This document shows positions 1 to 18,472 of a DNA stretch of 20,400 nucleotides, one piece after another. The DNA is from a virus (taxonomy: Duplodnaviria; Heunggongvirae; Uroviricota; Caudoviricetes). Made by a program: the position numbers and the translations under genes. The DNA is taken from IMG/VR virus record IMGVR_UViG_2734482547_000016; one strand, 5' to 3'. Numbering within the stretch: position 1 is the stretch's first letter; each line of letters begins with the position of its first letter. The notes beneath the pieces are model-generated. The model was not told where the DNA came from. It searched no databases and saw nothing but the letters and a program-made list of their open reading frames with translations.

Positions 1-393
1 ATTCAGGTTATGCCGCTCAATTCGCTGCGTATATCGCTTGCTGATTACGTGCAGCTTTCCCTTCAGGCGGGATTCATACAGCGGCCAGCCATCCGTCATC
101 CATATCACCACGTCAAAGGGTGACAGCAGGCTCATAAGACGCCCCAGCGTCGCCATAGTGCGTTCACCGAAGACGTGCGCCACAACCGTCCTCCGTATCC
201 TGTCATACGCGTAAAACAGCCAGCGCTGACGTGATTTAGCACCGACGTAGCCCCACTGTTCGTCCATTTCAGCGCAGACAATCACATCACTGCCCGGCTG
301 TATGCGCGAGGTTACCGACTGCGGCCTGAGTTTTTTAAGTGACGTAAAATCGTGTTGAGGCCAACGCCCATAATGCGGGCGGTTGCCCGGCAT
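1..393 (-). CDS. insB: IS1 InsB transposase, 3' end lies beyond the window start (partial)
   Basis: Reverse-strand translation from the window start gives ...[18 protein letters not shown], and upstream [29 protein letters not shown]..., matching IS1 InsB; it overlaps insA in a different frame as expected for the insAB' frameshift arrangement. Confidence 0.8.
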
Positions 394-587
394 CCAACAC
401 CATTCATGGCCATATCAATGATTTTCTGGTGTGTACCGGGTTGAGAAGCGGTGTAAGTGAACTGCAGTTGCCATGTTTTACGGCAGTGAGAGCAGAGATA
501 GCGCTGATGTCCGGCAGTACTTTTACCGTTACGCACCACGCCTTCAGTAGCTGAGCAGGAGGGACAACTGATGGAGATGGAAGCCAC
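312..587 (-). CDS. insA: IS1 InsA (transposition regulator, zinc-finger/HTH)
   Basis: 91-aa [46 protein letters not shown]... recognised as IS1 InsA; CxxC...CxxC motif present. Confidence 0.9.
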
Positions 588-1474
588 GGGAGCACCTCAA
601 AAACACCATCATACACTAAATCAGTAAGTTGGCACCATTACCCACAAAGTCTGCGTGGGATATTCTGAAAGAATATCCATAATGTGGAGAGAATCTATTG
701 AAGTGCATGGTGCCGGGTGCCTCCCGGTGAACAAAATGTTCGTGATACCTGTCGGCGACAGAAAAGGTTAATGGTATCACCCCACCGCACAGGGGGATTC
801 ACCATGCAGGAGTTTTCTTAGCAAACTCACTGCGCGCCCGGCAACTCCCAACCACATAAAATGCGGAGTTTGTGGCATTTATGCATATAACTCGCAGGAA
901 TTATCTTAAAAAACTGATGTCGATCCGGATTAAAAAGAAGCAGGTCATCATCAGATGACTGGAAAAAAGGAAAACAAAAAATACTCATCATACAGTTTTG
1001 ATTGCAGGGATGAGCCTGCTATGCACAATATGCAGAATATAAGCAAGATAAAAATATGCAGGCATATTATTTCGGATTTTGTTATTAACACAACCTTTTT
1101 AATAATCATTTGGCATACAATAAACCAGCCCAAAAAGAACCGCCTAAACAGGCGGTTGGTCAATACAAAGGATGCTTCGTCTTTATTATAGTAATCTGAG
1201 GCGTCGGGTGTCTTGTATCAGACAACATATTGTCCCGCTAAACAGCGAATTACAAACCACCCTGCAATGATCTCTCATCTCATTTTATATGAGTTGACGA
1301 CATCAGGATAACGCATCATCAGCCCCTGCCAAGAAATATCAAAACTCCCGCCAGCAATGTGTTATCACAATATTGTAAAAAAAACACAGCACCGAAACTA
1401 TAACTGGTCTCTGTTATAATTTGGAGCAGAAAGACCAGTTGCCCAACTAGCAGCATTCTCCCCTGCTTTCCTGA

Positions 1475-1507
1475 CGTAAAAAAACCGCATTAAGCGGTTT
1501 TTTTACG
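1475..1507. terminator. Bidirectional intrinsic terminator (14-bp perfect stem, 5-nt loop, A-run and T-run flanks)
   Basis: CGTAAAAAAACCGC-ATTAA-GCGGTTTTTTTACG; lies about 80 nt downstream of the Q-like gene on the minus strand, the position of a tR'-like terminator. Confidence 0.6.
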
Positions 1508-1584
1508 ATGTCCATGTCTGCAATCCGCCTCGCGATACAGCTTTGCGAAGCATAGCAAAATTGAAGCAGTTTATACGTAAGAAA

Positions 1585-2127
1585 TCAAGCCATTTTCTCA
1601 GCAAATGATTCACGCATGGGAATATATAGGGCATACTCAGCAACAGCTAACCAATTAGCAATCCGTTTTTCGCATGTGCTAAAACACCACTCTGGGTGTG
1701 CATCATTTAGCAATTCAGCCATTTTGCGCTTAGTCATCCCCCGCCCTTCATAGCGTTGCCGGAGAATGCAAATCAATCCTGGATGCTCTGCCAGCACCTC
1801 ACTTATGACTCGATCAATACATAACGCCTCTGCATCAGTACAATGCGCCAGCCAGCTCTTTTGCTTGCCGTTGATCATCTCTCGCAAAAACGCTTCCAGC
1901 TCAGCTTTCTCTATTCCCGCTTTTTTCATTCTGCGCAGGGCTTCATTAATGGCTGTTTTCGTCAGTTTTTTGGATGCCAACAACTGATTGAACATATTCC
2001 CTGACCTGCCACCGCCAATATACGACCAGCGCCCCCACATACGCAGTTTGCCCTGAATCCAGACACTTTCCAGCGTGGCGAGACGAAGGTGTTCTCCGCT
2101 TTTTCCTGTATTCGTTGGGTAAATCAC
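1585..2127 (-). CDS. Putative late-gene antiterminator (Q-like), copy A, 180 aa
   Basis: Last gene of the nin-like region, start overlapping the stop of a ybcO-like ORF (ATGA arrangement), followed by a short leader and strong terminator. Assigned from position and size; family not verified. Confidence 0.5.
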   Translation of the reverse strand: MIYPTNTGKSGEHLRLATLESVWIQGKLRMWGRWSYIGGGRSGNMFNQLLASKKLTKTAINEALRRMKKAGIEKAELEAFLREMINGKQKSWLAHCTDAEALCIDRVISEVLAEHPGLICILRQRYEGRGMTKRKMAELLNDAHPEWCFSTCEKRIANWLAVAEYALYIPMRESFAEKMA

Positions 2128-2233
2128 AAATATCCCTCCTTTCTCCAGATTTCTTGTGTGCGAAAAACACCTTCTGCATGCATCAGGCGTAATTCTTCTT
2201 TGGTGTAATCGCTGGTTTTTACCCGCCCGTCGA
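2124..2233 (-). CDS. YbcO-like (DUF1364-type putative nuclease) copy A, C-terminal fragment running into the N gap
   Basis: Translation ...DGRVKTSDYTKEELRLMHAEGVFRTQEIWRKEGYL is identical to the C-terminus of the complete ybcO-like ORF at 3004..3294. Confidence 0.6.
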
Positions 2234-2483
2234 NNNNNNNNNNNNNNNNNNNNNNNNNNNNNNNNNNNNNNNNNNNNNNNNNNNNNNNNNNNNNNNNNNN
2301 NNNNNNNNNNNNNNNNNNNNNNNNNNNNNNNNNNNNNNNNNNNNNNNNNNNNNNNNNNNNNNNNNNNNNNNNNNNNNNNNNNNNNNNNNNNNNNNNNNNN
2401 NNNNNNNNNNNNNNNNNNNNNNNNNNNNNNNNNNNNNNNNNNNNNNNNNNNNNNNNNNNNNNNNNNNNNNNNNNNNNNNNNNN
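2234..2483. other. Run of 250 N (assembly gap or masked sequence)
   Basis: Directly visible; interrupts ybcO-like copy A and the 3' end of Q-like copy B. Confidence 1.
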
Positions 2484-3007
2484 AAAGCCATAACCATTGG
2501 TTTGTACAAAATAAATTCTGCCACCTTTAGCCAATGCTCAATGCGTCTTTCACAGGTTCTTAAACTCCATTTCGGGTGTGCATCATTCAGCAGTTCAGCC
2601 ATTTTGCGTTTGGTCATCCCCCGCCCCTCATACCGTTGCCGAAGGACGCTAATCAATCCTGGATGCTCTGCCAGCACCTCACTTATGACCCGATCAATAC
2701 ATAACGCCTCTGCATCAGTACAATGCGCCAGCCAGCTCTTTTGCTTACCGTTAATCATATCCCGCAAAAAAGCCTCAAGTTCAGACTTGTTCAGACCTGC
2801 TTTTTTCATCCTCCGGAGCGCCTCGTTAATTGCCGTTTTTGTCAGCTTTTTAGAGGTCAACATCAGGTTAAACATATTCCCCGTCTTACCGCCACCAATA
2901 TACGACCAGCGCCCCCACATACGTAGTTTTCCCTGAATCCAGACACTTTCCAGCGTGGTGAGACGAAGGTGTTCTCCGCTTTTTCCTGTATTCGTTGGGT
3001 AAATCAT
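2484..3007 (-). CDS. Putative late-gene antiterminator (Q-like), copy B; 3' end lost in the N gap
   Basis: Start MIYPTNTGKSGEHLRL... at 3007 overlapping the ybcO-like stop; about 90% identical to copy A over the first ~145 aa by eye, but with a divergent C-terminal segment (…KWSLRTCERRIEHWLKVAEFILYKPMVMA… versus …EWCFSTCEKRIANWLAVAEYALYIPMRESFAEKMA). Confidence 0.5.
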
Positions 3008-3294
3008 AAATATCCCTCCTTTCTCCAGATTTCTTGTGTGCGAAAAACACCTTCTGCATGCATCAGGCGTAATTCTTCTTTGGTGTAATCGCTGGTTTTT
3101 ACCCGCCCGTCGATTAAATCGTGGCACGAGCTACAGGCAATCGCTGCCTGCATATCGTGTGGCTTTATCGCTGTTCCGCACGTTCCCGCCAGTCGGTAAT
3201 GCGCCAGCACAGACGTTTCCGGATCGTGATTGCAGTAGCCAGGAATTCTGACGGTGCACATCTGCCCCCGCGCCGCTTTACGTAAATCCACCAT
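3004..3294 (-). CDS. YbcO-like protein (DUF1364-type putative nuclease, Cys/His-rich), 96 aa
   Basis: MVDLRKAARGQMCTVRIPGYCNHDPETSVLAHYRLAGTCGTAIKPHDMQAAIACSSCHDLIDGR... resembles the DLP12 YbcO family as I recall it. The ORF track extends to 3375; the start was chosen by homology-consistent length. Confidence 0.65.
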   Translation of the reverse strand: MVDLRKAARGQMCTVRIPGYCNHDPETSVLAHYRLAGTCGTAIKPHDMQAAIACSSCHDLIDGRVKTSDYTKEELRLMHAEGVFRTQEIWRKEGYL

Positions 3295-3468
3295 TACGCA
3301 AACTCCAGTAGCTGCGCGGCCACATTTTCGACCTGTTCCGGAGAGGAAAATTTTCGGTACAGGATCCAGTTCCACAGCACATTCAGTACAGATTTATAAA
3401 CCTGCTGAAACTCGGTTTCCTCCATATTCGCAAACGCGATAGATTTCGCCCGACGCCCACGACTACCA

Positions 3469-3718
3469 NNNNNNNNNNNNNNNNNNNNNNNNNNNNNNNN
3501 NNNNNNNNNNNNNNNNNNNNNNNNNNNNNNNNNNNNNNNNNNNNNNNNNNNNNNNNNNNNNNNNNNNNNNNNNNNNNNNNNNNNNNNNNNNNNNNNNNNN
3601 NNNNNNNNNNNNNNNNNNNNNNNNNNNNNNNNNNNNNNNNNNNNNNNNNNNNNNNNNNNNNNNNNNNNNNNNNNNNNNNNNNNNNNNNNNNNNNNNNNNN
3701 NNNNNNNNNNNNNNNNNN
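3469..3718. other. Run of 250 N (assembly gap or masked sequence)
   Basis: Directly visible; removes most of the ybcN-like gene. Confidence 1.
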
Positions 3719-3901
3719 GTAATCGAATCCCAGTTGCAGGAGTTTGAAAAAACGCTTGTGGAATGCGTAGTTACGCACACGCTTAAAGTCTGCGTGTATC
3801 CACTCACCTATTTTGATTTGATGCAGAAAATCGCAACTCTCCGGCGTCGCCGGGAGAAGTAAACCAGAAGAAGTTTGTTTGACCAGTTGTATATGCGCCA
3901 T
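3719..3901 (-). CDS. YbcN-like (DUF1367-type) nin-region protein, N-terminal 61 aa only; the rest is in the N gap
   Basis: MAHIQLVKQTSSGLLLPATPESCDFLHQIKIGEWIHADFKRVRNYAFHKRFFKLLQLGFDY... resembles the N-terminus of lambdoid YbcN-family proteins. The ORF-track segment 3383..3468 is in frame only by coincidence of N counting. Confidence 0.55.
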
Positions 3902-4176
3902 TTCTCAATCTCTCGATGGCGCAGTGCAGCAGATGCCAGTTGTTCAGGCTGACGTATAAAGTATAAATAAACTGGTTCCAGTGTAAAGCCCCCACATTGA
4001 TGGAATAAAAATCAAACAATAGATTGCTGGGATAAAAATACAACGCTTATTATTAAAAGCGGTTAGACAAATTAAATTTTAATGTTATGCAAATCTGCCA
4101 GATTAGCATAATATCTCATTTGAAAACCGCTGAAATAACAATCTTACCAGGATTAATCATATTAAGGTGAGTAAAT

Positions 4177-4263
4177 ATGGAAAACAACAAATCTGCACAT
4201 TACGCTCCTTTTTTATCTGTAATACTTTTTGTATTTTGTTGTGTATGGGCGGTATTTTTATAA
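4177..4263 (+). CDS. Candidate small hydrophobic peptide (28 aa, one predicted transmembrane helix)
   Basis: MENNKSAHYAPFLSVILFVFCCVWAVFL; SD-like AAGGTGAG 6 nt upstream of the ATG; stop lies 14 nt before a strong intrinsic terminator. Below the ORF-track size cutoff. Confidence 0.3.
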   Translation: MENNKSAHYAPFLSVILFVFCCVWAVFL

Positions 4264-4276
4264 AACACACCCACAA

Positions 4277-4310
4277 ATAAATCAAACCCGCTACAGCGGG
4301 TTTGATTTAT
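4277..4310. terminator. Bidirectional intrinsic terminator (15-bp perfect stem ATAAATCAAACCCGC / GCGGGTTTGATTTAT, loop TACA)
   Basis: Immediately downstream of the S8 peptidase stop on the minus strand and of the small ORF on the plus strand; A/T-rich flanks. Confidence 0.7.
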
Positions 4311-4317
4311 ATAGTTG

Positions 4318-6582
4318 TTATACGGAAACTGGCACACGAGCAGGCAATGGATAGTGAGCCCAGTTATTAGCATTTAAAGCTCTTACGCCATCAGCATAAA
4401 CTTGTGTGTTTCCATCTAATGATTTTAAAGTTACTACAATAGTTACAGGTAAAGGCTCCATTAAGGCCGGTTCATTCGCTCTCAACGTTGTTTTAGCCTG
4501 AAGAGCCCAGTTACCCGAAGTAATTCCTTTATTAAATGCCTTGCGATGAATTTTTACTGGTGACCACTTTCCACCATGCTCAATTTGAGCTCTCTCATAT
4601 CCAGATTGACCGTTTTCTCCTTCCATAGGCACTTTTCCTTTTATAGTATTATTCTCAATTAAGCCAAAACTTAGCTCTACGTTCGCGCGAACATATTCAC
4701 TGCCGGCATTAGGGTTCAGTGGTGGTGCATATGCAGCAGTAATTACAATCTCACCTTTAAATTTTCCATTTTGAATAAGTGCCGATGGTATGGGATAGTT
4801 TTCCTTTCTCCACCTCACCCCAGGAACCAAGAATGTTTGGAAAATCAGAGTAAACCTATCATCACTATCATATAAGGTCTCAATAACTTCATTAGGAATT
4901 CCCGCTCCCAAATAGCGTCTTTCACTTGGCGAGTAATCAGGAGAAGATAATTGAGCGGAATGAATTAATAATGCTTTAATCAATGATGGTGAAACATTAA
5001 AGTCTGAATTAGTGGCTATTCTCTGCCATGTATGCGCAGCTAAACTTGCCACAATTGGAGCAGCAAAACTAGTACCAAAATTAGAGCAAAGCCTATTATC
5101 TGGCCCTACGACCTTTAAACTGCTTGCTCCTACATTCCAAGGTCTATGAACCCCACCGCCAGCATGGATTATATCTGGCTTTGGAGTAAATACAGGCCCA
5201 GGGCCACGACGAGTATATGGTGTCGGTGTTCCAATTTCACTTAAAGCATCATTAGCTTCCATATGAGAAACTGAACCAACTGTTAGTGCTCGGACTGACT
5301 CTCCAGGAGAGGAAATTAAATCAGCACCTCCAAGCGGATCAGGATTTGGCCATGTACGTATAGGTTCATCTACATAATTACCTGCAGCAACTACAAACAA
5401 AATACCAAATTTATCGCTGAGTCGATCTAACTCCATCGCAAAATCACTAAACGTCTGCTCATTACATGGTCCGCCTCCCAAAGACAAATTCCAGACTTTT
5501 ATATCTGGTCTTTTATTTACAGCATCTGCTAGCCTCAGAATTAAATCTGATATATAAGATCCATTTTCATCTAAAGCACAAACATCATGGATTTTAGATT
5601 TTGTATCAGGAATCCATGGATGATTGTCATTTAAAAAATGAGCGCCTGATATCAATGAAGACACCATAGTCCCATGTTCATAACTCGTATCAGGAGGAAT
5701 TACGTATGTTTCCCTACTCACTACCCAAGGAGTAATTGTTGCCGCGATGGGGCTTACCCCAGTGTCAAATACAGCAACAATGGGTAATTCTTCTGATGGT
5801 ACGGGAAAGCTATTTGTTTCAATGCCAACAGAATCACTTACACTAACCGGGAATGCTGAATATTTTGGTTCTGGAATTAACGTTCTTATACCCGGGTAAT
5901 CAATGAGAATGTCTAATATATATCTATCATTTGGGGATAAATCCATTATCCTTAATAAGGGAAGACCACATTTTTGTCTAATCTCATCATATTTAACTCC
6001 GTGTTGTTCTAATATAGAAATAACGTTTTCATAGTTGTTGTAAGTTGCATCTTCACCTGTGTACTCAAATAGTCGTACAAGGATGTTTGATGATTCAAAC
6101 AAACCATCAGTGCCTCCTGGAACCTTCCTATTCTCATCCCAAGGTTCAATGCGCTCAATCGCGCTTAGATTAGCCAAAATCGCTTTAATATTCCGATGTA
6201 AAATGACTGACTCTAATACGTCAAAACAGCCGGCATGAGCAGCAACCAACATTTCATCTATTTTGGCATGACCGGCATTTTGCAATCCAGCATCTTGAGC
6301 AATTTTGTTCGGCCTATGCGTTTTGGCTATTCCCTGGTCTCTTAATTTGAAAACCAAAGTACCCAAGCTTCCAGGGTACTCTGAAAGTTTGGATTCTAAA
6401 TAATGTTTACTGGTTGTTAAATTTCTTACTAGCCCTTGTCTATATTCGGCTGTTACATCAACCAATACCTTTGCCCCACCGCCAGCGTTTACTATTGCAC
6501 CCAAGTCACTACTGGAAAAAGGGATTCTTAACATTGGGTTTGTAACTTTTGCGTTACTAAACTGTGTACCCCTTCTGCTCAT
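4318..6582 (-). CDS. Subtilisin-like S8 serine peptidase, 754 aa, no signal peptide, with long N- and C-terminal extensions
   Basis: Asp-His-Ser order with canonical motifs: VAVFDTG (Asp273), HGTMVSS (His303), AAGN oxyanion Asn (about 402), GTSFAAP (Ser505). N-terminus is hydrophilic. SD AGGAG upstream; start overlaps the upstream ATPase ORF by 26 nt. Confidence 0.85.
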   Translation of the reverse strand: MSRRGTQFSNAKVTNPMLRIPFSSSDLGAIVNAGGGAKVLVDVTAEYRQGLVRNLTTSKHYLESKLSEYPGSLGTLVFKLRDQGIAKTHRPNKIAQDAGLQNAGHAKIDEMLVAAHAGCFDVLESVILHRNIKAILANLSAIERIEPWDENRKVPGGTDGLFESSNILVRLFEYTGEDATYNNYENVISILEQHGVKYDEIRQKCGLPLLRIMDLSPNDRYILDILIDYPGIRTLIPEPKYSAFPVSVSDSVGIETNSFPVPSEELPIVAVFDTGVSPIAATITPWVVSRETYVIPPDTSYEHGTMVSSLISGAHFLNDNHPWIPDTKSKIHDVCALDENGSYISDLILRLADAVNKRPDIKVWNLSLGGGPCNEQTFSDFAMELDRLSDKFGILFVVAAGNYVDEPIRTWPNPDPLGGADLISSPGESVRALTVGSVSHMEANDALSEIGTPTPYTRRGPGPVFTPKPDIIHAGGGVHRPWNVGASSLKVVGPDNRLCSNFGTSFAAPIVASLAAHTWQRIATNSDFNVSPSLIKALLIHSAQLSSPDYSPSERRYLGAGIPNEVIETLYDSDDRFTLIFQTFLVPGVRWRKENYPIPSALIQNGKFKGEIVITAAYAPPLNPNAGSEYVRANVELSFGLIENNTIKGKVPMEGENGQSGYERAQIEHGGKWSPVKIHRKAFNKGITSGNWALQAKTTLRANEPALMEPLPVTIVVTLKSLDGNTQVYADGVRALNANNWAHYPLPARVPVSV

Positions 6583-7711
6583 ATGCTCCTGACTCCTTCA
6601 GAATGTTTGAAATTACTCTTGATGTAAGTTTGTACAAATTAGCAAGAACTCTGATAGAAAATAATTTTTTATCTTTAGAACGTAACCAACGAATTTCATC
6701 TTCGTAAGTGCTTAAATTTACACCTTCCATAAGCGATTGAGCAAGATACAAACGCCTATACAATTTATGGTGATTTATCACACTTGCACCTTCAATAACT
6801 GCATCCCTACGTGCATCCAAGCTCACCTGTTCAATTATTGCTCCGGATAATCCTTCCGATTTTCTTGATAAATCACTTAAATCTAGATCGCAACATATCA
6901 TATTCTTTAAACGATTTTTCCAAATTAACTCTCTCTGATGTATGTCAGGCAGAGGCATTGGAATTCTGAAGCTAAATCGCCTCCAGATTGCAGGATCCAG
7001 AAGTTGCTCATGGTTAGTTGAGGCAATAATTACCGTATCCTCTGATGCCGCATCCATATTCTGCAATAGTGAAATGACAACTCGCTGAAGCTCACCTATA
7101 TCTCTCTCATTACCTCTTGCTCCAGCTAAAGCATCAAATTCGTCTAAAAAAAGCACTGATGGCCTCTGCATTACATAATCGAAAACCTGTCTAAGATTTT
7201 TGCTGGTTTGTCCCAATAAACTACTAATCAAAGTATCGCAACGCACTGTAAGAAGTGGAAAATCTAAGCGGGTAGCGATGTACTTAGATAACATAGTCTT
7301 ACCTGTTCCTGGCTTTCCATACACGAGCATACGACTCGGCAATGCTGCATCAGCTTTAACAAACTCATCATAACGTTGAACATTAGTGATAAACTCTTCA
7401 ACACGGGTACTGATTGCTGCAGGCAGAAAAATCTCTGAACTGTCTAATTTAGGATAACTGACATCAACAGTGTTGAGTCGACTATCAATATCTACCGGTA
7501 ATGAGCCCAGAGATATCCCACCTCCAGCCCTTTGAGCTCCTGCCAACGCCTGGGGAGCTCTAAGCAACCTTTCTCTTATCATTCTGGCTTGCTTGACCTC
7601 CCCTTTTTGTTCGAGCTTATCTGCCAGCAACCCAGCATAATTACTAGCCATCGAAGCATTTGCCTTTGTTGCACCTTCAATGATTTTTAACACTTCTGAT
7701 AAATAATCCAT
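6557..7711 (-). CDS. AAA+ ATPase, 384 aa
   Basis: Walker A GKPGTGKT (aa 132-139), Walker B VLFLDEFD (aa 186-193), downstream IIASTN sensor-1-like motif; no TM segment; translationally coupled to the peptidase gene. Confidence 0.85.
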   Translation of the reverse strand: MDYLSEVLKIIEGATKANASMASNYAGLLADKLEQKGEVKQARMIRERLLRAPQALAGAQRAGGGISLGSLPVDIDSRLNTVDVSYPKLDSSEIFLPAAISTRVEEFITNVQRYDEFVKADAALPSRMLVYGKPGTGKTMLSKYIATRLDFPLLTVRCDTLISSLLGQTSKNLRQVFDYVMQRPSVLFLDEFDALAGARGNERDIGELQRVVISLLQNMDAASEDTVIIASTNHEQLLDPAIWRRFSFRIPMPLPDIHQRELIWKNRLKNMICCDLDLSDLSRKSEGLSGAIIEQVSLDARRDAVIEGASVINHHKLYRRLYLAQSLMEGVNLSTYEDEIRWLRSKDKKLFSIRVLANLYKLTSRVISNILKESGAYEQKGYTV

Positions 7712-7904
7712 TCAACACTCCCACAACAAAAAGCCACAGCAATCAAAAAATGAGCACGCAGAATCAAAATACTCTCTAATCGTAACGCATTTTGAGATTT
7801 TTGATACGTTTTTTTGGGATTATGTAACGCCAAATGGTCATTTTGTGTCAGAAAAATAAATCTTAGTACCGAGAATATGTAGCTTCCATCCTTCATCGTT
7901 CTAT

Positions 7905-8336
7905 TCATCCCTGATCTCCAAGCCTCTCTCGAAAACCATTCTGATAAAACGCCAGCACACGCTGCATAACTTCACTCTTCCGGCACTCGCGACAGATTAT
8001 GTTCAGACGCCTGTCGTAGCGGCGTATTTCTCCGTCTGGTAATGACCAGATAAGGTCCGGATCAACCACAGATGGTTTCTTCACCTTTGCCCTGGATAGT
8101 TTTTTGCGGGCATTTTGCCAGTCCTTACGAGCCTGTTCAGACGGGAATAACCCGTAACCAGAGTTGTATACATCGCCACTGGCAACCAGCTCTCTGGCGA
8201 GAACGCTCATCAGATATCTTGTCGCACCTGTCTTGGCCTCCAGTTGTCGTAACGTCTCGCGTCCACTCCGGCGTACTAGCTCAACAACCTGCCCTTTAAT
8301 TTTTTCCCGCTCTTCTTGTGTAAATACTTTTGCCAT
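7905..8336 (-). CDS. Hypothetical phage protein, about 143 aa
   Basis: ORF with GGAGG 5 nt upstream of ATG (MAKVFTQEEREKIKGQVVELVRRSG...); basic and charged. The ORF-track start at 8351 is a TTG; the ATG at 8336 is preferred. Confidence 0.5.
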   Translation of the reverse strand: MAKVFTQEEREKIKGQVVELVRRSGRETLRQLEAKTGATRYLMSVLARELVASGDVYNSGYGLFPSEQARKDWQNARKKLSRAKVKKPSVVDPDLIWSLPDGEIRRYDRRLNIICRECRKSEVMQRVLAFYQNGFRERLGDQG

Positions 8337-8351
8337 AAGCGCCTCCGGCAA

Positions 8352-9113
8352 TCACTTTTCCGATACAACACGGCGGGAAGAATCAGCAATCTGTCGAACA
8401 ATATCCCGGTGCTTGTTCAGCTCCCGCAGCGCGGCGCAGACTCGCTCCCACTTCTGGACATGATTTTTCGCCCGACGCAGTTCGCGGTTTGCCATATGCA
8501 GCGATGGCAAAATCAGGTCATCAGCTCGCGTTTCAGTAAACGATGGCAGCGACTGCACAATGTCCGCCACAGTTTCTGTTTTAATATCTTCCTGTGTTGC
8601 CGCTTCCTGTACTGGTAACGCAACACCGGCTGGCTGAGGAAAGGTTTTACCATCAGTTTCCGTTACCGATGCAGCTTTCGGCTCTGCTGGTAAATCATCG
8701 CCCGGCATGCAGTAACGAAATTTACCGTTCTGATTAACGCGAAGCAGACGACCTTTGCTGATTGCCATTGCCAGCGTTGAAGCCACTTTGCGTGATGTGG
8801 TACCAAACAATGTAGCCAGCTCATCCGCCGTTTGTGGTCCACGTTGTTCAATCGTCGCAGTTAAATCGCTCTCTGAAATTTTCGCGACTGTTGCCGTGGT
8901 AGTTTCTTCCGGCAGTTCTGCCGGCGCTGGCTGTTCCTGCTGAACGTTGTTATCAGCCACACGCCAGGTGTACGCGCTTTTATCAACGAAACCAGCCTTT
9001 TTCAGTTCCCATAGTTCGTTCAGCACTTCTTCACGACTGATATCAAGTCGCGCAGCAAGTTCTATGGATGTGGCTTTTCCCATTGCTTTCAGTACGTCAA
9101 AAACAGTCTCCAT
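8352..9113 (-). CDS. Hypothetical phage protein with a probable N-terminal winged-helix DNA-binding domain (possibly DUF1627-type)
   Basis: [44 protein letters not shown]... looks like a wHTH; an acidic Pro/Glu-rich linker follows; SD GGGAGA upstream of the ATG at 9113. Sits just downstream of the DnaC-like gene as in other lambdoid prophages. Confidence 0.55.
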
Positions 9114-9135
9114 TAAATTTTTCTCCCGGTAAAAA

Positions 9136-9882
9136 TTACTTCGCAATTCCTGGCTGGACGACATTCGGACGCCAGCTCTCCCAGTTGAAATTCACCCATC
9201 GCCCGCCGTTCATGGTCATGCGATCCATAATCCGCTCGCCAAGCAATGTTTTCATGGCCTCATAGTTCAGGTTTGTCAGCATCCCCACGCTGCGCATCGA
9301 CGCTGTCCGGCGATCAACAATCTGGTGCAGCACCACCTGCTCGTTTTTCGTCTCGCGCTGAATGCCAATTTCATCAAGAACCAGCAGATCCACTTCGCAC
9401 AGTTCCCGCAAAAATTTTTCGCCTGACTGCCCGTCGTCATAGCTGGCGTGCAGGGCACTCATAACATCAGCCACGGTAACCACAATCACTGTCTGACCGT
9501 CTTTCAGCAGGCGATTCCCGATAGCTGCCGCTAAGTGGTTCTTCCCGGTACCAGGTTTTCCGCTGAACGCAAAATTTGTACACCCGGTCATCAGTTCATC
9601 AGCGATGGATTTCGCCTGACTCAACGCGTATCGCTGCCCTTCGTTCTGCACCTGGTAATTCGAAAACGAGCATTTGCGGTGCAATGGCTGGATGCCAGAG
9701 CGATTCAGAATTTTTTCCACCCGCAACTGACGATTCTGACGGTTGATCTCCTCACAACGTTTCTGGCCTTCGGAAAGTTGCCACTCGCGCCACTCCGCTA
9801 CCGTCTTGAATGGCGCGGTTACATGTGACGGGGCCAGTCTGCGGATACGTTCAAGAACGTCGCCTGTCGCAATATTTTTCAT
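9136..9882 (-). CDS. ydaV: DnaC/IstB-family replicative helicase loader (P-like), 248 aa
   Basis: Walker [16 protein letters not shown] and Walker B LLVLDEIG; same length and position as Rac YdaV (recollection). Confidence 0.75.
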
Positions 9883-9888
9883 GGTCAG

Positions 9889-10677
9889 TTACCCCCTGAA
9901 GCCTGGCGGGATCGCACTATCCGGTAACGAGACGGTGTTAACCTGTCGGAGTAACGTCTCAGGTCGAACACCTTTCGGCGCGAACAAGCCCTGGTATTCG
10001 TTGGCGATGCTGTGTCGAATCACCTGCTCAGGTGAAAAACCCTGCTGGCGGAATTTTTCCAGCTCCCGTATCGCCCCGTTAGCGCCCTGCTCCGTTCGAA
10101 TCGGTTTTCGCAATGCCTGCCTGAACTGAACCCACTCATGCCAGAGTGTTTCCGGCAACCAGTCAGGCAGCTCGATAGCCTCCGGTTCGAATTTTTTAGA
10201 CGCTCGTTTTTGGCGAGGGGGATTTAGGGGGAGATAAGTATTTATATCTTCCTCTTTCTCTTCCTCTGGTAACGCTTTTTGATCCGTTTTTGTAACGCTG
10301 GCAGCGTTACCTTTTCGTTTCAGTTCTCGTATTTTTGTTACTCTCTCGTTTGTAACCGCCCGTTTTTTAGAGCTTTTCCCGTTATGGCGCTCAAAGTTAG
10401 GAAGCGACAACACACCATTAGTTTCGACCAGCCATCCAACCTGAATTAACGCATCAGCAAAACCAGCCATAAAAGTGATGCGATCTATTGCACTTTTTGT
10501 AACGCCGCGAGCGTTACACTCTGCGTTACCGTCTATCATTTGTTGATCCGCCCATGCCCAGAAGCGAATGACTTTCCCTAATGCGGCATCTGGATCAATA
10601 TTCAGAATCTCAGCAAGCCTGAATATTTCCGGCTTATCCGGCGTAATAACCTCGAGCTTTATCCAGTTTGAAGCCAT
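9889..10677 (-). CDS. Replication initiation protein (YdaU-like, O-like role), 262 aa
   Basis: Immediately upstream of the DnaC-like gene (6-nt spacing); SD AGGTGA; contains and is preceded by iteron-like palindromes; central low-complexity basic/acidic linker. Confidence 0.6.
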   Translation of the reverse strand: MASNWIKLEVITPDKPEIFRLAEILNIDPDAALGKVIRFWAWADQQMIDGNAECNARGVTKSAIDRITFMAGFADALIQVGWLVETNGVLSLPNFERHNGKSSKKRAVTNERVTKIRELKRKGNAASVTKTDQKALPEEEKEEDINTYLPLNPPRQKRASKKFEPEAIELPDWLPETLWHEWVQFRQALRKPIRTEQGANGAIRELEKFRQQGFSPEQVIRHSIANEYQGLFAPKGVRPETLLRQVNTVSLPDSAIPPGFRG

Positions 10678-10710
10678 TTGTTTTCACCTTGTAACGCTCG
10701 CAGCGTTACA
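10268..10710. repeat. Iteron-like palindromic repeats, consensus TGTAACGC-N3-5-GCGTTACA (3 full palindromes plus half-sites)
   Basis: Full copies at 10291..10310 (TGTAACGCTGGCAGCGTTAC), 10498..10518 (TGTAACGCCGCGAGCGTTACA) and 10690..10710 (TGTAACGCTCGCAGCGTTACA); half-sites at about 10268, 10351 and 10523. Two lie inside the ydaU-like coding region, one just upstream of its SD. Confidence 0.6.
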
Positions 10711-10754
10711 TTTAACTGATACCGAACAAAACAGTTCGGTACGATTAATTTCAA

Positions 10755-11177
10755 TCAATGCACTACGACAGAATCGCTAGGAGAACCGCCGCCGCTGAAA
10801 TGTGCTTTACGGTAAACGGCCTGGACTGCATCATCATGCGCATCAATTGCCGTACTCAGTGCATCCTGTGCCGCCAGTAATGCACGGCGTTCCAGGGTAT
10901 CGAAGATGCAGAGTCGGTGACGCAGCTCGCGAGGAAGAATTGCCAGAACCGCAGGGATCAGTTTCTGAATTTTTTCCCTTTGCGCATTCGTTTCACCTTT
11001 CAACCAACGATGATAGATATTCTGCTGATTGTTCCAGTCCTTGCCTGGTACCAGGGGCAATTCGCCGCCCCCCTGGCGCAGATATTCTTCAGTAATTGCG
11101 TTAGCGACCCACGCCTGCCCTTTTTCGGCTGCCAGGGCTAACAACACTGATTCGATGTGCTCATGCTTGATTTTCAT
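10755..11177 (-). CDS. ydaT: YdaT-like protein (CII-analogue regulator of Rac-type prophages), 140 aa
   Basis: MKIKHEHIESVLLALAAEKG... resembles Rac YdaT (recollection); start overlaps the stop of the Cro-like gene (ATGA). Confidence 0.6.
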   Translation of the reverse strand: MKIKHEHIESVLLALAAEKGQAWVANAITEEYLRQGGGELPLVPGKDWNNQQNIYHRWLKGETNAQREKIQKLIPAVLAILPRELRHRLCIFDTLERRALLAAQDALSTAIDAHDDAVQAVYRKAHFSGGGSPSDSVVVH

Positions 11178-11428
11178 GAATCAACTCCCATCAGCTTTTT
11201 CGTAGTAGTTTTATTTCTGCCAATAGTTAAAATTGCATCGGCAGAAAATAATCCGTTTGATGCATGAGCGATTTTTTCAGCGTAATTTGTTTCGCCGGTA
11301 TATTCTGTGCGAGGCAATTTTCCGTTATCCATCCATTTGTAGATTGCTCTTTGGCTGACACCACAAACGTCGGCCACAACAGAAACGCGAACAGTTTTGA
11401 TTACATCTTCAAGTGTTTTCTGGTTCAT
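11174..11428 (-). CDS. Cro-like HTH regulator (YdaS-like), about 84 aa
   Basis: HTH-like segment VSVVADVCGVSQRAIYKWMDNGKLP; SD GAGGA before the ATG at 11428; divergent from the repressor gene. The ORF-track start at 11500 would overlap the repressor promoter, so the internal start is preferred. Confidence 0.6.
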   Translation of the reverse strand: MNQKTLEDVIKTVRVSVVADVCGVSQRAIYKWMDNGKLPRTEYTGETNYAEKIAHASNGLFSADAILTIGRNKTTTKKLMGVDS

Positions 11429-11507
11429 ATCATCCTCACAATGTGAACTTTGAGTACATGCTATAACAGAACTGACAGTACATTCAAGAGCGAATATCAT
11501 TGAACTT
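11429..11507. promoter_or_regulatory. OR-like divergent promoter/operator region between the repressor and the Cro-like gene
   Basis: 79-bp intergenic region between divergent regulators; two direct AGTACAT motifs (11453..11459, 11477..11483). Confidence 0.5.
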
Positions 11508-11927
11508 ATGGTTCATGAAGATAAAGCGCGTAAAGAGTTCGCCAGTAGGCTTGCGCTAGCCTGTGAAAACGCTGGTTATGAACAACATGGAAGGCAGGCA
11601 GAAATTGCCCGTCGAATGAAATTAACACCAAAAGCGGTTAGCAAATGGTTTAATGGTGAAACAATTCCTCGCCGAGAGAAATTAAGGGAATTAGCAACAC
11701 TCATTGGAACAACACCAACCTATCTTTTGGGAGAGGATACAGAAGAAAGTGGACAGATACGTTTCTATCAGGAGTTAAATCCAAGACAAAAAATCATCAT
11801 TGACCTTCTGGACGAGCTCCCTGACAGTGAGACAGATGAACTTTTAAAAACTCTTGAGGAGAAAAAACAGAAGTACAATGCAATTTACGAAGAGTTAGCA
11901 CGAAAGAAAAAACAAAAAGCCTCTTAA
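11508..11927 (+). CDS. Prophage repressor, XRE-family HTH (RacR-like), 139 aa
   Basis: HTH segment QAEIARRMKLTPKAVSKWFNGETIPRREKLRELATLIG; no S24 peptidase domain; C-terminal charged coiled-coil-like tail; divergent from the Cro-like gene. Confidence 0.7.
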   Translation: MVHEDKARKEFASRLALACENAGYEQHGRQAEIARRMKLTPKAVSKWFNGETIPRREKLRELATLIGTTPTYLLGEDTEESGQIRFYQELNPRQKIIIDLLDELPDSETDELLKTLEEKKQKYNAIYEELARKKKQKAS

Positions 11928-11995
11928 ACCAGCATAAATCCGGTAGCGTCCCCCTCCGGGTTTGTGCTTCACTTTATCCCGTCTCATTTTTTTAT

Positions 11996-12050
11996 ACATA
12001 AAATGTACTTAAAGTACTTTACAATGATGAACACAAAGTACATTATATAC
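11996..12050 (+). promoter_or_regulatory. PL/OL-like promoter with overlapping operator motifs
   Basis: Candidate -35 TTTACA (12018..12023) and -10 CATTAT (12041..12046) with 17-nt spacer; AGTACAT-type motifs (ATGTACT 12003..12009, palindrome AAAGTACTTT 12011..12020, AGTACAT 12038..12044) overlap both elements. Confidence 0.4.
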
Positions 12051-12214
12051 CTACCAACCCACCCCGCCCCACAGAACGCCGGGCAATACTTCGAGTTACC
12101 AGGCAGTGGTCAGGGGTTAAGTAGCCAGCCCGAGGCGTATGAACATGACGGCGGGATTCAAATTTTGCAGTGCAGCAGTTAGTTCCGCCACCCGGCGTTA
12201 AGGGGAGAGATAAG

Positions 12215-12349
12215 ATGGTGCATTACGAAGTAGTTCAGTATTTGATGGATTGTTGCGGTATCACTTACAACCAGGCTGTGCAGGCTTTACGCAGCAACGA
12301 CTGGGATCTCTGGCAGGCAGAAGTCGCTATACGTAGCAACAAGATGTGA
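12215..12349 (+). CDS. Small prophage protein (YdaG-like), 44 aa
   Basis: MVHYEVVQYLMDCCGITYNQAVQALRSNDWDLWQAEVAIRSNKM with SD AGGGGAGAGA upstream; first ORF after the PL-like region; below the ORF-track cutoff. Confidence 0.5.
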   Translation: MVHYEVVQYLMDCCGITYNQAVQALRSNDWDLWQAEVAIRSNKM

Positions 12350-12359
12350 GATTCGCAAA

Positions 12360-12515
12360 ATGCAAAAAATCGACCTCGGCAACAACGAATCCATGGTGTG
12401 CGGCGTGTTCCCCAACCAAGATGGAACGTTCACTGCTATGACGTATACCAAAAGCAAAACATTTAAAACCGAAACTGGTGCGCGCCGATGGTTGGAGAAG
12501 CACACAGTAAACTAA
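12360..12515 (+). CDS. ydaF: Small prophage protein (YdaF-like, DUF1391-type), 51 aa
   Basis: MQKIDLGNNESMVCGVFPNQDGTFTAMTYTKSKTFKTETGARRWLEKHTVN resembles Rac YdaF (recollection); stop overlaps the convergent sieB stop. Confidence 0.55.
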   Translation: MQKIDLGNNESMVCGVFPNQDGTFTAMTYTKSKTFKTETGARRWLEKHTVN

Positions 12516-13000
12516 CGATTAAAACGTCTACTCCTGCTGTTCCAGAATAACTTCATAAAATGGGAGTATTTTTCGGTGACGAGATAATAAGAACAGTTTG
12601 CGCTATCACTCTGATGTTGAATGATGCCCTTCCGTTCTAATTTTTTCATAACCGGGTTACGGCAAGGAGAAGTGATAATAAGATTTCCTGTTTTAAGGAA
12701 ATCTTTAAATACAGCTATTTCTTTCTCAGATAAACGAAGCAATACTCGTTGCTCTGGTAGTAATGAATAATGCTTTTGAATATGTGCTCGCAATCTTGAG
12801 AAGGAAATGGCGACCACGAAAGAAAAGGCAAAAACGATAATCTGAAAGAGCCAAGGTATTTCAGTATAAGCATTGAATGCGACAGTAAACTCTTTCGGTA
12901 TCAGCCAGAGAGTGAGACCAAAAATGATAATCGTATACATAAGTCTTTCGAGTGGCTCGTTAGCAAAAAGTTTCAACAATGGAGTAAATACATCCAACAT
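12512..13000 (-). CDS. sieB: Superinfection exclusion protein B (SieB), membrane protein, 162 aa
   Basis: MLDVFTPLLKLFANEPLERLMYTIIIFGLTLWLIPKEFTVAFNAYTEIPWLFQIIVFAFSFVV... matches SieB of Rac/lambda as recalled; hydrophobic N-terminal half. The ORF-track start at 13123 is an upstream extension. Confidence 0.8.
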   Translation of the reverse strand: MLDVFTPLLKLFANEPLERLMYTIIIFGLTLWLIPKEFTVAFNAYTEIPWLFQIIVFAFSFVVAISFSRLRAHIQKHYSLLPEQRVLLRLSEKEIAVFKDFLKTGNLIITSPCRNPVMKKLERKGIIQHQSDSANCSYYLVTEKYSHFMKLFWNSRSRRFNR

Positions 13001-13430
13001 ATCAATAACTCTCAACTGTAAGGGTATTGAAATGTTAACACAAGCTCTCGCTGTAGGGGTATAGCCGAGACCACCGAAGCCCGGAGGTGGTGAAATAAAA
13101 CTGGGCGCAACACGAAGGCGCATTTCCGATATCCATAAAGAGTCGGTCTTGTCTGTTAAATTTAAATGGTGGGAGTGCGCCTCCGGTTGTAAATAACGAC
13201 ATTGCTGTGTGTAGTCTTGGCGGCATCAGTTTTTTCTTGAAGTTCGGCTGATGTCCGCCCTTTTTAAAGTGAATTTTGTGATGCGGTGAATGCGGCTAAG
13301 CGCACGCGGAACAGTTAAAAGCATCAGTGTTATGGGGGGATTATCCGGCGTTAATTGTTAACTGGTTAACGTCACCTGGAGGCACCAGGCACCGCATCAA
13401 CAAGGTTCATTTGTGAAAATGGAGATAATT

Positions 13431-13652
13431 ATGATTGCTCATCACTTCGGAACTGATGAAATACCTCGTCAGTGTGTGACTCCTGGTGATTATGTTCTTC
13501 ATAACGGCCGGACATATATTGCCTCGGCAAACAATATTAAAAAGCGAAAACTTTATATTCGAAACCTGACCACAAAAACATGCATTACTGACTGCATGAT
13601 TAAAGTCTTCCTCGGTCGTGATGGTTTACCTGTAAAGGCGGAGTCATGGTGA
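13431..13652 (+). CDS. kilR: KilR (Rac-type killing protein, cell-division inhibitor), 73 aa
   Basis: [50 protein letters not shown]... matches Rac KilR as recalled; SD GGAGA 5 nt upstream. Confidence 0.75.
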
Positions 13653-13822
13653 TGACTAAGAAAATAAAATGTGCTTACCACCTTTGCGATAAAGAAGTTA
13701 AAGAAAGCAAAAGCATTAAAAGACCACTTCATTTCATGCGTGGAGTTATCCCAACGACGGAAATGAAAAAATATTGTAGTGAAATATGTGCCGAAAAAGA
13801 CCAGATGGCACACGAACTTTAA
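13652..13822 (+). CDS. Small Cys-rich protein (possible zinc ribbon, YdaE-like), 56 aa
   Basis: [21 protein letters not shown]...KKYCSEICAEKDQMAHEL; start overlaps the kilR stop (TGATG); below the ORF-track cutoff. Confidence 0.45.
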   Translation: MTKKIKCAYHLCDKEVKESKSIKRPLHFMRGVIPTTEMKKYCSEICAEKDQMAHEL

Positions 13823-13896
13823 TTAACTGACTATGCGAAACTGAATTTATGCCAGCAATGGCAGGGATTCGCTCAACCTTAATTAAGGAGAAAAAC

Positions 13897-14172
13897 ATGA
13901 TTACCAGTTATGAAGCCACTGTTGTAACTACTGATGACATTGTTCACGAAGTTAATCTGGAAGGAAAGCGTATTGGCTACGTGATTAAAACAGAAAATAA
14001 AGAAACCCCATTCACTGTGGTTGATATCGACGGTCCATCAGGCAACGTTAAAACACTTCACGAAGGTGTCAAAAAAATGTGCCTGGTGCATACCGGAAAG
14101 AATCTGCCCGCAGAAAAAAAAGCCGAATTTCTGGCAACTCTAATTGCAATGAAATTAAAAGGTGAAATCTGA
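13897..14172 (+). CDS. racC: RacC-like protein, 91 aa
   Basis: 91-aa ORF with SD AAGGAG directly upstream of recE, the position of racC in Rac; length matches. Confidence 0.55.
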   Translation: MITSYEATVVTTDDIVHEVNLEGKRIGYVIKTENKETPFTVVDIDGPSGNVKTLHEGVKKMCLVHTGKNLPAEKKAEFLATLIAMKLKGEI

Positions 14173-14273
14173 AAGAAATAGCCTGCGTATGGCGCAGGCT
14201 ATGAACAGTGTGTATCCGGCAAGATCATTCACTGAACAAAACGAATTTTAATCTGAGTTGAGGTTAAAAAACA

Positions 14274-17200: not shown

Positions 17201-17345
17201 ACTTGGTCGACAGGAATATCGCCGGACGCTACGCCAGATAAACGAAGCCCTGGAGACAAACAACTGGCCAGCACCGATTACCGAAAGTTATACCGACGAA
17301 TTAAACGACTTTGATCTTCGTCGTCTTGAAGCACTGAGCATCTGA
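14274..17345 (+). CDS. recE: RecE-family exonuclease VIII (5'-3' dsDNA exonuclease), 1023 aa
   Basis: N-terminus [21 protein letters not shown]... and a C-terminal PD-(D/E)xK-type nuclease region (…[10 protein letters not shown]…VKSVSLGYV…) resemble RecE; acidic low-complexity central linker; followed by an annealing-protein gene. Confidence 0.75.
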
Positions 17346-17356
17346 GGAAGGACACA

Positions 17357-18409: not shown

Positions 18410-18472
18410 TATTGACTTTGGCGGTGTAGCCTCACCGCCATCACAAAATTTTATTTTATGAGAGAAAAGACA

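Follow-up and report, generated by a model that had tools for sequence, protein, structure and literature searches.

Does a Rac-type prophage of Shigella sonnei carry two alleles of its putative late antiterminator gene in tandem, or has a draft assembly placed two related fragments side by side? The question arises from a 20,400-nucleotide stretch of DNA (hereafter the window), which corresponds to positions 1–20400 of the draft record CWYJ01000040.1 (GCA_001245685.1; locus L018); CWYJ00000000 is given as Shigella sonnei H094200294 in the list of PMC5447701. A preliminary description of this DNA reported near-identical segments around 2040..2233 and 2920..3120, with a period of about 880 bp, as two ybcO-Q units on either side of a 250-N gap, and named a join between contigs of different lambdoid prophages as the alternative to a real duplication. 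Our analysis indicates that the tandem Q-like pair is very probably a product of short-read draft assembly and scaffolding, and no feature of the chromosome.

Reading from the left, the relevant part of the window resolves into three pieces (A, B and C), set apart by two runs of N:

1–643, minus strand: IS1 fragment, with the insA open reading frame at 312–587 (translation InsA).
643–2233: piece A, Rac-type; the downstream leader of Q1, Q1 itself and the last 110 nt of ybcO, stopping at gap 1.
1478–1584, minus strand: putative late-promoter leader and terminator; a conserved block of ~75 nt at the Q1 stop, then a hairpin and U run (1478–1507).
1585–2127, minus strand: Q1, a DUF1133 protein of 180 aa with a GTG start; putative late antiterminator of a Rac-type prophage.
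2124–2233, minus strand: 3′ end of ybcO, ~36 codons, cut by gap 1.
2234–2483: gap 1, 250 N, a probable placeholder; the identical run is found in CWYJ01000040.1.
2484–3468: piece B, an isolated contig of 985 nt; P-type (other prophage) over 2484–3308 and Rac-type over 3168–3468.
2484–3007, minus strand: Q2, a DUF1133 allele with an ATG start; 174 codons visible, the full allele having 184 aa.
3004–3294, minus strand: complete ybcO, a putative nuclease (DUF1364) of 96 aa; Pfam YbcO, 151 bits.
3294–3468, minus strand: 3′ end of the DUF1367 gene, 57 codons, Rac-type; Pfam profile positions 143–198, 100% identical to L017.
3469–3718: gap 2, 250 N, inside the DUF1367 gene and just outside the region originally described.
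3719–3901, minus strand: 5′ end of the DUF1367 gene, 61 codons; Pfam DUF1367 profile positions 1–60. Piece C begins here.

The repeat itself is readily observed. Positions 1648–2233 and 2528–3113 form a direct repeat of 586 nt with a start-to-start spacing of 880 nt and 88% identity (68 mismatches), a similarity far above chance (BLAST E = 0). The near-identical segments are as first reported: 2040–2233 and 2920–3113, again offset by 880 nt, agree at 98%, with four mismatches in 194 nt (at 2044, 2050, 2079 and 2127), and the final 106 nt of the left copy (2128–2233) match 3008–3113 exactly. The 250-N gap between the copies is likewise present, at 2234–2483. The claim of two ybcO-Q units stands only in its second half; there are indeed two Q-like open reading frames, but not two ybcO genes, the left copy holding just the final 110 nt of ybcO. 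The period of 880 nt is set in part by a run of N of arbitrary length, and the spacing therefore depends on the length given to gap 1.

Both N runs are found in the public record, each of exactly 250 nt and with the stored gene calls interrupted there, so that piece B stands enclosed between them. Gap 1 would contain the junction of the two copies, and no determined sequence crosses it. Gap 2 can be sized from homologous loci: its equivalent, judged by coordinates in L001, L002, L003, L004 and L017, is 242 nt rather than 250; the DUF1367 gene spans 608 nt here versus 600 nt elsewhere, with the consequence that its two halves are out of frame. The gap lengths appear to be placeholders, that of gap 2 being in disagreement with the homologous loci. 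This bears directly on the idea that the N runs are length-true masks over real contiguous sequence, in which case the 880-nt tandem would be as the genome reads. Whilst both runs do share the same round length, that idea demands an extra 8 nt inserted into DUF1367 by comparison with all the reference loci measured, in a gene whose two visible ends are both 100% identical to L017, and the gene calls stored with the record already break at the N runs. We regard it as extremely improbable and, given the 8-nt excess of gap 2 and the interrupted gene calls, reject it.

Both Q-like proteins belong to DUF1133 (PF06576; Pfam cutoff 23.1 bits), Q1 scoring 355.5 bits over profile positions 1–175 of 176 and Q2 352.6 bits over positions 1–173 of 176. 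The final 10 codons and the stop of Q2 are missing, as they fall in gap 1; its visible part exactly matches the N-terminal portion of a 184-aa protein encoded by L002 (WP_000640122.1). Taking this identical allele as full-length Q2, Q1 and Q2 share 91% identity over residues 1–145 and 52% over residues 146–176, in agreement with the preliminary description of two genes alike over ~145 aa and divergent in the last ~35 aa. Phage records label the DUF1133 gene as antitermination protein Q, and it is given as ‘Q antiterminator HHPred’ in PMC8136144. Members of the antiterminator Q family Phage_antitermQ (PF06530, for example Q of phage 82 / DLP12 QuuD) resemble the genes described here in their site, which immediately precedes a conserved leader with its strong terminator hairpin and the lysis genes; they differ in that DUF1133 is the primary family here, the match to PF06530 being marginal at 26.1 bits for Q1 and 29.7 bits for Q2, barely over the cutoff of 26 bits and covering only part of the profile. 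Data on antitermination activity of DUF1133 were not found in the literature searched. DUF1133 takes the Q position, and it probably serves as late-gene antiterminator at the conserved leader/terminator lying directly downstream.

An alignment of the regions downstream of three alleles reveals that ~75 nt past the stop codon, together with the ensuing hairpin, are conserved between DUF1133 alleles; the hairpin has an RNA folding energy of −19.7 kcal/mol (z −5.15). A simple promoter/terminator scan of 1250–1650 called no terminator, despite the strength of this hairpin, and returned no convincing late promoter. The alleles described here do not bear out the expectation that Q specificity co-varies with its target, leader and hairpin being kept across them. 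In L001, L004 and L007–L017, holin, lysozyme and Rz genes are found downstream of DUF1133. In the window, the prophage late region downstream of Q1 is instead interrupted by the IS1 fragment with which the public record opens; it is 95% identical over 1–643 to an IS1A copy in L002, and Zn_ribbon_InsA / HTH_Tnp_IS1 are the Pfam matches of a gene called in L018. IS1 is absent from the equivalent site in both L017 and L019.

In gene content this is an ordinary lambdoid nin-region module, common and already catalogued: its three Pfam families recur, with order and strand unchanged, in the DUF1367 (irsA)-YbcO (DUF1364)-DUF1133 module of, for example, Escherichia phage Rac (MN652886.1) and vB_EcoS-666R9 (ON470614.1). 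Relatives of this Rac-type module share with it the overlap of ybcO stop and Q start by 4 nt (seen here between the ybcO of piece B and Q2), and where intact they carry a lysis cassette downstream. They possess one unit, however, whereas in the window an additional Q allele and part of a ybcO lie on the other side of an N gap, and IS1 cuts the late region.

The two outer pieces are Rac-type throughout. Piece A is identical at 1591 of 1591 positions (100%) to the gap-free contigs L017 and L019, with identities of 99.7% to L001 and 99.1% to L004. Piece C forms the Rac early region and continues to IteS/IteA, recET and intR; it agrees with L017 at 10861 of 10864 positions over 3719–14582 (99.97%), and with L019 at 4349 of 4349 over 3719–8067 (100%). 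L017 is a contig of 252 kb, and within the collection the exact IteS and IteA are encoded by just three further contigs. Neither L017 nor L019 contains any N, and each carries one DUF1367-YbcO-DUF1133 unit, with 597 nt from the point where A ends to the point where C starts. The closest relatives with contiguous sequence are thus without the duplication. The exact Q1 protein, moreover, occurs in single units in 10 of 10 places among the matches listed.

Piece B is of mixed type. Over 2484–3308 it has no mismatches to L003 or to the S. sonnei-type loci L021–L030, position 2732 in L025 being the one exception, and it matches L002 up to 3280, with the first mismatch at 3281; from 3309 on, 9 to 14 mismatches separate it from the P-type loci. 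The comparison with L017 runs the other way, with 73 mismatches before 3168 and none over 3168–3468. The switch of type accordingly falls within 3168–3308, a 141-nt block common to all copies. The YbcO encoded at 3004–3294 differs from the Rac-type YbcO of L017 by a single amino acid, and this exact protein adjoins DUF1133 alleles of 184 aa or 178 aa in 10 places among the matches listed, in a single unit each time. The complete S. sonnei UKMCC1015 chromosome CP060117 carries the Q2-YbcO module twice (L029, L030), the two copies being separated by over 1 Mb, and 2484–3308 is also 100% identical to modules of other IS-rich chromosomes. In a scan of species-representative genomes for a 40-mer lying at the start of B, the only genomes recovered were those of S. 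flexneri SFBU1023 and E. coli ECMA0423, whose shared sequence is limited to 2484–2895. The N runs of the public record, the single-unit matches of the flanks and a Q2 allele belonging to other prophages all support the earlier suggestion that contigs of different lambdoid prophages were joined; our analysis refines it, in that the middle contig is not plainly foreign but is itself a hybrid of foreign-type and Rac-type sequence.

Such a hybrid could also arise by real recombination between prophages in which no tandem is formed: a crossover in the 141-nt block would have joined a Rac early region (C and DUF1367) to a foreign ybcO-Q2, leaving B and its link to C as true, and A (the ybcO end, Q1 and IS1) as sequence from elsewhere, mis-scaffolded. 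The clean change of B from P-type to Rac-type within 3168–3308 suits this proposal, as do the order and spacing of B and C, which agree with the gene order of Rac, where 242 nt would be expected to separate them. Exchange between prophages at shared modules is, besides, common in the IS-rich and prophage-rich genomes of Escherichia and Shigella. Both strains with identical flanks nevertheless show the plain Rac arrangement, and an assembly path over an exact repeat of 141 nt yields the same hybrid with no biology involved. The hybrid stretch 3100–3468 reaches at most 97.8% identity in complete E. coli genomes, a weak check that is uninformative by itself, as the Rac type of L017 is absent from those genomes. 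On balance we consider this recombination unlikely.

Turning to whether tandems exist elsewhere, none of the 109 other fetched loci carrying the gene has two copies of DUF1133, and none of nine phage records has tandem units, all nine having one unit. In the best of 5,426 complete E. coli genomes, pieces A, B and C are covered by a single 1,713-nt unit at 95.7%; A, B and C all at ~99% identity were found in none of the 5,426.

These results weigh on a genuine tandem, in which a Rac-type prophage would carry DUF1367-ybcO-Q2 followed by a second ybcO (partial or whole) and Q1, for instance through unequal crossover with a related phage, and a single late leader would lie downstream of both alleles. 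The deposited scaffold has its pieces in this order, and the Rac-type right end of B suits an insertion inside Rac. Completing Q2 and ybcO would take ~212 nt, which fits a gap of ~250 nt; were 250 a read-pair estimate, moreover, its closeness to the true 242 at gap 2 would imply a positive distance from the end of Q2 to the ybcO of A, as a tandem needs. Set against this, the junction lacks any crossing sequence, near-identical strains have one unit, and no tandem was encountered in the 109 other loci, the nine phage records or the best complete E. coli genomes. A module at other S. sonnei sites matches Q2-ybcO at 100%, the final 106 nt of A just repeat the interior of B, much as an unresolved graph branch would, and the gap lengths appear to be placeholders (250 against 242). 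A genuine tandem is, in our judgement, very unlikely.

An artefact of assembly and scaffolding remains the reading we favour, and we infer the following course for it, both in the exact path of the assembler and in the P-type prophages carried by the source strain. The real Rac-type prophage would have one DUF1367-YbcO-DUF1133(Q1) unit, with A joined to C via ~597 nt, and the same genome would harbour one or two further lambdoid prophage remnants with the related Q2 (184 aa) module. Exact shared blocks of 109, 141 and 130 nt would have left the copies unresolvable for the assembler: contig A would halt in the 109-nt block, contig C would begin in the 130-nt block, and contig B would pass from the foreign Q2-ybcO to the Rac-type DUF1367 end, with its crossover in the 141-nt block. 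B may then have been set between A and C, with fixed spacers of 250 N, on the basis of read pairs or a reference order. With A and B left unmerged, the homologous stretch of 586 nt is present in duplicate. The outcome resembles mis-scaffolded or collapsed-repeat contigs in short-read drafts of genomes rich in IS elements and prophages (Shigella, for example), in which N runs of fixed size enclose a small contig, a neighbour ends in sequence also found within that contig, the contig equals repeats elsewhere in the species and the gap size is off relative to homologues; it departs from them in that a typical collapsed-repeat contig is a plain collapsed copy, whereas the small contig here is a hybrid of two repeat types.

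The ends of the contigs accord with this scheme in part. The end of A lies inside a 109-nt exact block common to Rac-type and P-type copies (3008–3116 in the frame of B), and the start of C inside a 130-nt exact block that the P2-type copy also carries (window 3680–3809); neither end of B falls in an exact shared block (the right end being 3468). The stretch of 242 nt that is absent between B and C is Rac-specific, departing from P1/P2 every 10–50 nt, and the repeat alone leaves the failure to assemble it unexplained. An attempt to derive the k-mer size of the assembler from the contig ends was dropped as unreliable, the end of A fitting k = 107, the start of C requiring k = 92 and the ends of B fitting nothing. 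A Logan contig of run ERR572900, a candidate related read set, starts at window position 3833, 30 nt before 3863, where the first Rac/P1/P2 difference follows an identical run of at least 52 nt. With Logan contigs built at k = 31, this start is the position expected if ERR572900 holds both types.

If true, the tandem, with Q2 gained from a sister prophage through unequal recombination, would place two putative antiterminator alleles in competition for one target, a modest curiosity for lambdoid late-gene control. As it stands, the locus serves as a caution that duplications spanning N runs in short-read drafts of prophage-rich or IS-rich genomes should not count as biology, and this case can be dismissed from public data alone, through gap-free identical flanks, a middle contig equal to sequence of other prophages and a gap whose length disrupts a reading frame. 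For the DUF1133 family, what it does bring out is that alleles differing in their C-terminal ~35 aa precede the same conserved leader of ~75 nt and terminator hairpin, and hence that mosaicism at the C-terminus occurs with no obvious change of target.

Two runs of exactly 250 N break up the left-hand portion of the window, leaving three pieces: A (1–2233), B (2484–3468; 985 nt) and C (from 3719 onwards). Working from C downwards, in the direction of transcription, the features are:

3719–3901, minus strand: DUF1367 gene, 5′ end (translation/Pfam)
3469–3718: gap 2, 250 N, within the DUF1367 gene
3294–3468, minus strand: DUF1367 gene, 3′ end (translation/Pfam)
3004–3294, minus strand: ybcO, 96 aa
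2484–3007, minus strand: Q2 (DUF1133), last 10 codons absent
2234–2483: gap 1, 250 N
2124–2233, minus strand: ybcO fragment, last 110 nt
1585–2127, minus strand: Q1 (DUF1133), 180 aa
1478–1584, minus strand: conserved block and hairpin
between Q1 and the IS1 fragment, ∼940 nt: non-coding DNA
1–643, minus strand: IS1 fragment

Both Q1 and Q2 fall in DUF1133 (Pfam; 355 and 353 bits), their match to Phage_antitermQ being borderline (26.1 and 29.7 bits, respectively, against a cutoff of 26); ybcO encodes a member of the YbcO putative nuclease family, and the split gene belongs to DUF1367 (Pfam). In phage records the DUF1133 gene is labelled antitermination protein Q, and in intact relatives the lysis genes come next after it. 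The stop codon of ybcO overlaps the starts of both Q1 and Q2 by 4 nt, an arrangement that suggests translational coupling.

The direct repeat reported in the preliminary description is real: 1648–2233 and 2528–3113 share 88% identity, with 4 mismatches in 194 nt between 2040–2233 and 2920–3113, and with 3008–3113 an exact copy of the last 106 nt of A. The mosaic nature of the two proteins also holds; Q1, compared with the full 184-aa Q2, is 91% identical over residues 1–145 and 52% over residues 146–176. The start codons differ (GTG at 2127 for Q1, ATG at 3007 for Q2), a difference that is the final mismatch ahead of the identical 106-nt stretch. The 880-nt period is seen in the deposited sequence but arises solely from gap 1 having been written as 250 N.

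An exact-protein look-up with IteS (4318–6582) found four contigs. One of them is the public record CWYJ01000040.1 (GCA_001245685.1; 31.8 kb), which matches the window at 100% starting with the record's first base. It carries both 250-N runs, its stored gene calls being interrupted there; the draft was therefore deposited with these gaps. CWYJ00000000 is listed as Shigella sonnei H094200294, of lineage IIIb (PMC5447701). Annotation of related complete E. coli genomes identifies the surrounding element as a Rac-type prophage beside ttcA, with IteA/IteS, recE/recT, xis and int. An anti-phage pair at 4318–7711 (minus strand) comprises a 384-aa AAA ATPase, IteA, and a 754-aa S8 peptidase, IteS, names taken from RefSeq annotation of related genomes. 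Across the whole collection the exact proteins occur in just four contigs, source included, few for a clonal species as richly represented by genomes as S. sonnei; either the element is uncommon in this species or the contig derives from a co-sequenced E. coli. RecE (14274–17345) has 1023 aa, compared with 866 aa in the Rac prophage of E. coli APEC E14033 (L004), and 16043–18419 (the 3′ end of recE plus the 350-aa RecT) finds no match in the L004 locus; recET here is therefore a different allele within the mosaic Rac family.

Three other contigs in the whole collection bear exact IteS and IteA, two of which span the region free of N: L017 (a 252-kb contig, GCA_052424605.1) and L019 (a Logan contig, SRR33822533). 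Piece A (643–2233) matches each at 1591/1591 positions, and C matches L017 at 10861/10864 and L019 at 4349/4349. Both hold one DUF1367–YbcO–DUF1133 unit, with 597 nt from the end of A to the start of C, an arrangement that the deposited scaffold exceeds by 888 nt (985 + 500 − 597). With a single unit in these near-identical contigs, the tandem is very probably an artefact of assembly and scaffolding, as the preliminary description had itself allowed, and the Rac-type prophage of this strain would match L017 and L019 in having one unit. The public record opens with the IS1 fragment, which interrupts the prophage ∼940 nt downstream of Q1; at this position L017 and L019 have TolA-like genes, a holin, a lysozyme and Rz instead.

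A genuine tandem of two units, as the deposited order and the real repeat would have it, is very unlikely. No second unit stands beside the exact Q1 protein, nor beside the exact B-type YbcO, in the places shown (10/10 single units for each), and the matching phage records have one unit in 9/9 cases. In a tblastn count across the 120 fetched loci (source excluded, 80 IMG/VR loci included), 109 bear a DUF1133 gene and none of these has more than one within its flanks. The top matches to 1400–4000 from 5,426 complete E. coli genomes span both copies in one stretch of 1,705–1,713 nt, at no more than 95.7% identity; a true A+B+C arrangement would have headed this ranking at ∼99%.

Piece B is itself composite. 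Against the Rac sequence of L017 it has 73 mismatches, all at or before 3167, with 3168–3468 identical; 2484–3308 is identical in L003 (E. coli RMDEC465), a different lambdoid prophage, and in L002 (FDAARGOS_943) the first mismatch falls at 3281. From 3309 onward L003 and L002 each show ∼9 differences from B; tRNA genes and a class II holin follow Q in their prophage type. The ten listed occurrences of the exact B-type YbcO lie mostly on IS-rich chromosomes of 4.8–4.96 Mb, and the seven compared with B follow the L003 pattern, in two types: P1 (L024, L029) and P2 (L021, L022, L025, L027, L030), which show no difference from one another between a point before 2300 and 3434 (B coordinates). On CP060117, the S. 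sonnei UKMCC1015 complete genome, >1 Mb separates L029 from L030; Q2–ybcO is thus a repeat scattered among prophage remnants of S. sonnei. Two further loci, L005 3384–3795 (S. flexneri SFBU1023, CP182556.1) and L006 5467–5878 (E. coli ECMA0423, CP178302.1), match 2484–2895 alone (99.8%), i.e. the 3′ two-thirds of Q2; the end of similarity at 2895 suggests that the DUF1133 gene was recombined or truncated there as well.

The switch within B could also mean that recombination between prophages truly created the B–C junction, leaving A as the sole misplaced piece, a reading we consider unlikely. The longest exact blocks common to Rac-type and P-type prophages (B coordinates) are 141 nt (3168–3308), 130 nt (3672–3801; P2 only) and 109 nt (3008–3116), holding the type switch of B, the start of C and the end of A, respectively—the pattern expected where an assembler fails to tell near-identical prophage modules apart. 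The fit is imperfect: neither end of B lies in such a block, and the 242 nt absent between B and C are specific to Rac. Reading a k-mer size off the contig ends was abandoned, as no single k fits every end. A Logan contig of run ERR572900 (L020) spans 3833–7986, beginning exactly 30 nt before 3863, where, following at least 52 nt of identity, Rac first departs from P1 and P2 alike. With a Logan graph k that we take to be 31, this start is the break point expected if the read set holds both types, an independent hint in which ERR572900 as the strain's run is a guess.

In the artefact that we favour, Q2–ybcO sequence would stem from further prophage remnants in this genome, and the assembler would have built the hybrid 985-nt contig B across a shared block. 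Scaffolding may then have set B between A and C because the right end of B genuinely leads on towards C and is also what truly succeeds A, with fixed spacers in place of a merge. The counterpart of gap 2 has 242 nt rather than 250 in L001, L002, L003, L004 and L017, and the DUF1367 gene as deposited measures 608 nt instead of 600, its halves out of frame and called as two fragments. The gaps point to a spacer convention, since both are of the same round size and one is demonstrably wrong.

A ∼75-nt conserved block lies directly 3′ of the stop codon in three DUF1133 alleles (180, 184 and 178 aa); besides 1478–1584 of the window, the stretches concerned are L003 5870–5969, L029 ∼5843–5950 and L023 ∼5825–5930. 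The hairpin and U run that follow it (1478–1507; −19.7 kcal/mol, z −5.15 by RNA folding) were missed by a simple terminator scan, and no promoter was defined. Block and hairpin resemble a late leader and terminator, and may be comparable to lambda PR′–tR′. Variation in the protein's C-terminus is not mirrored in the block; the premise that Q alleles co-vary with their target is weakened, the DNA after the stop being nearly the same for alleles with different C-termini. The underlying module is a common one, and already catalogued.
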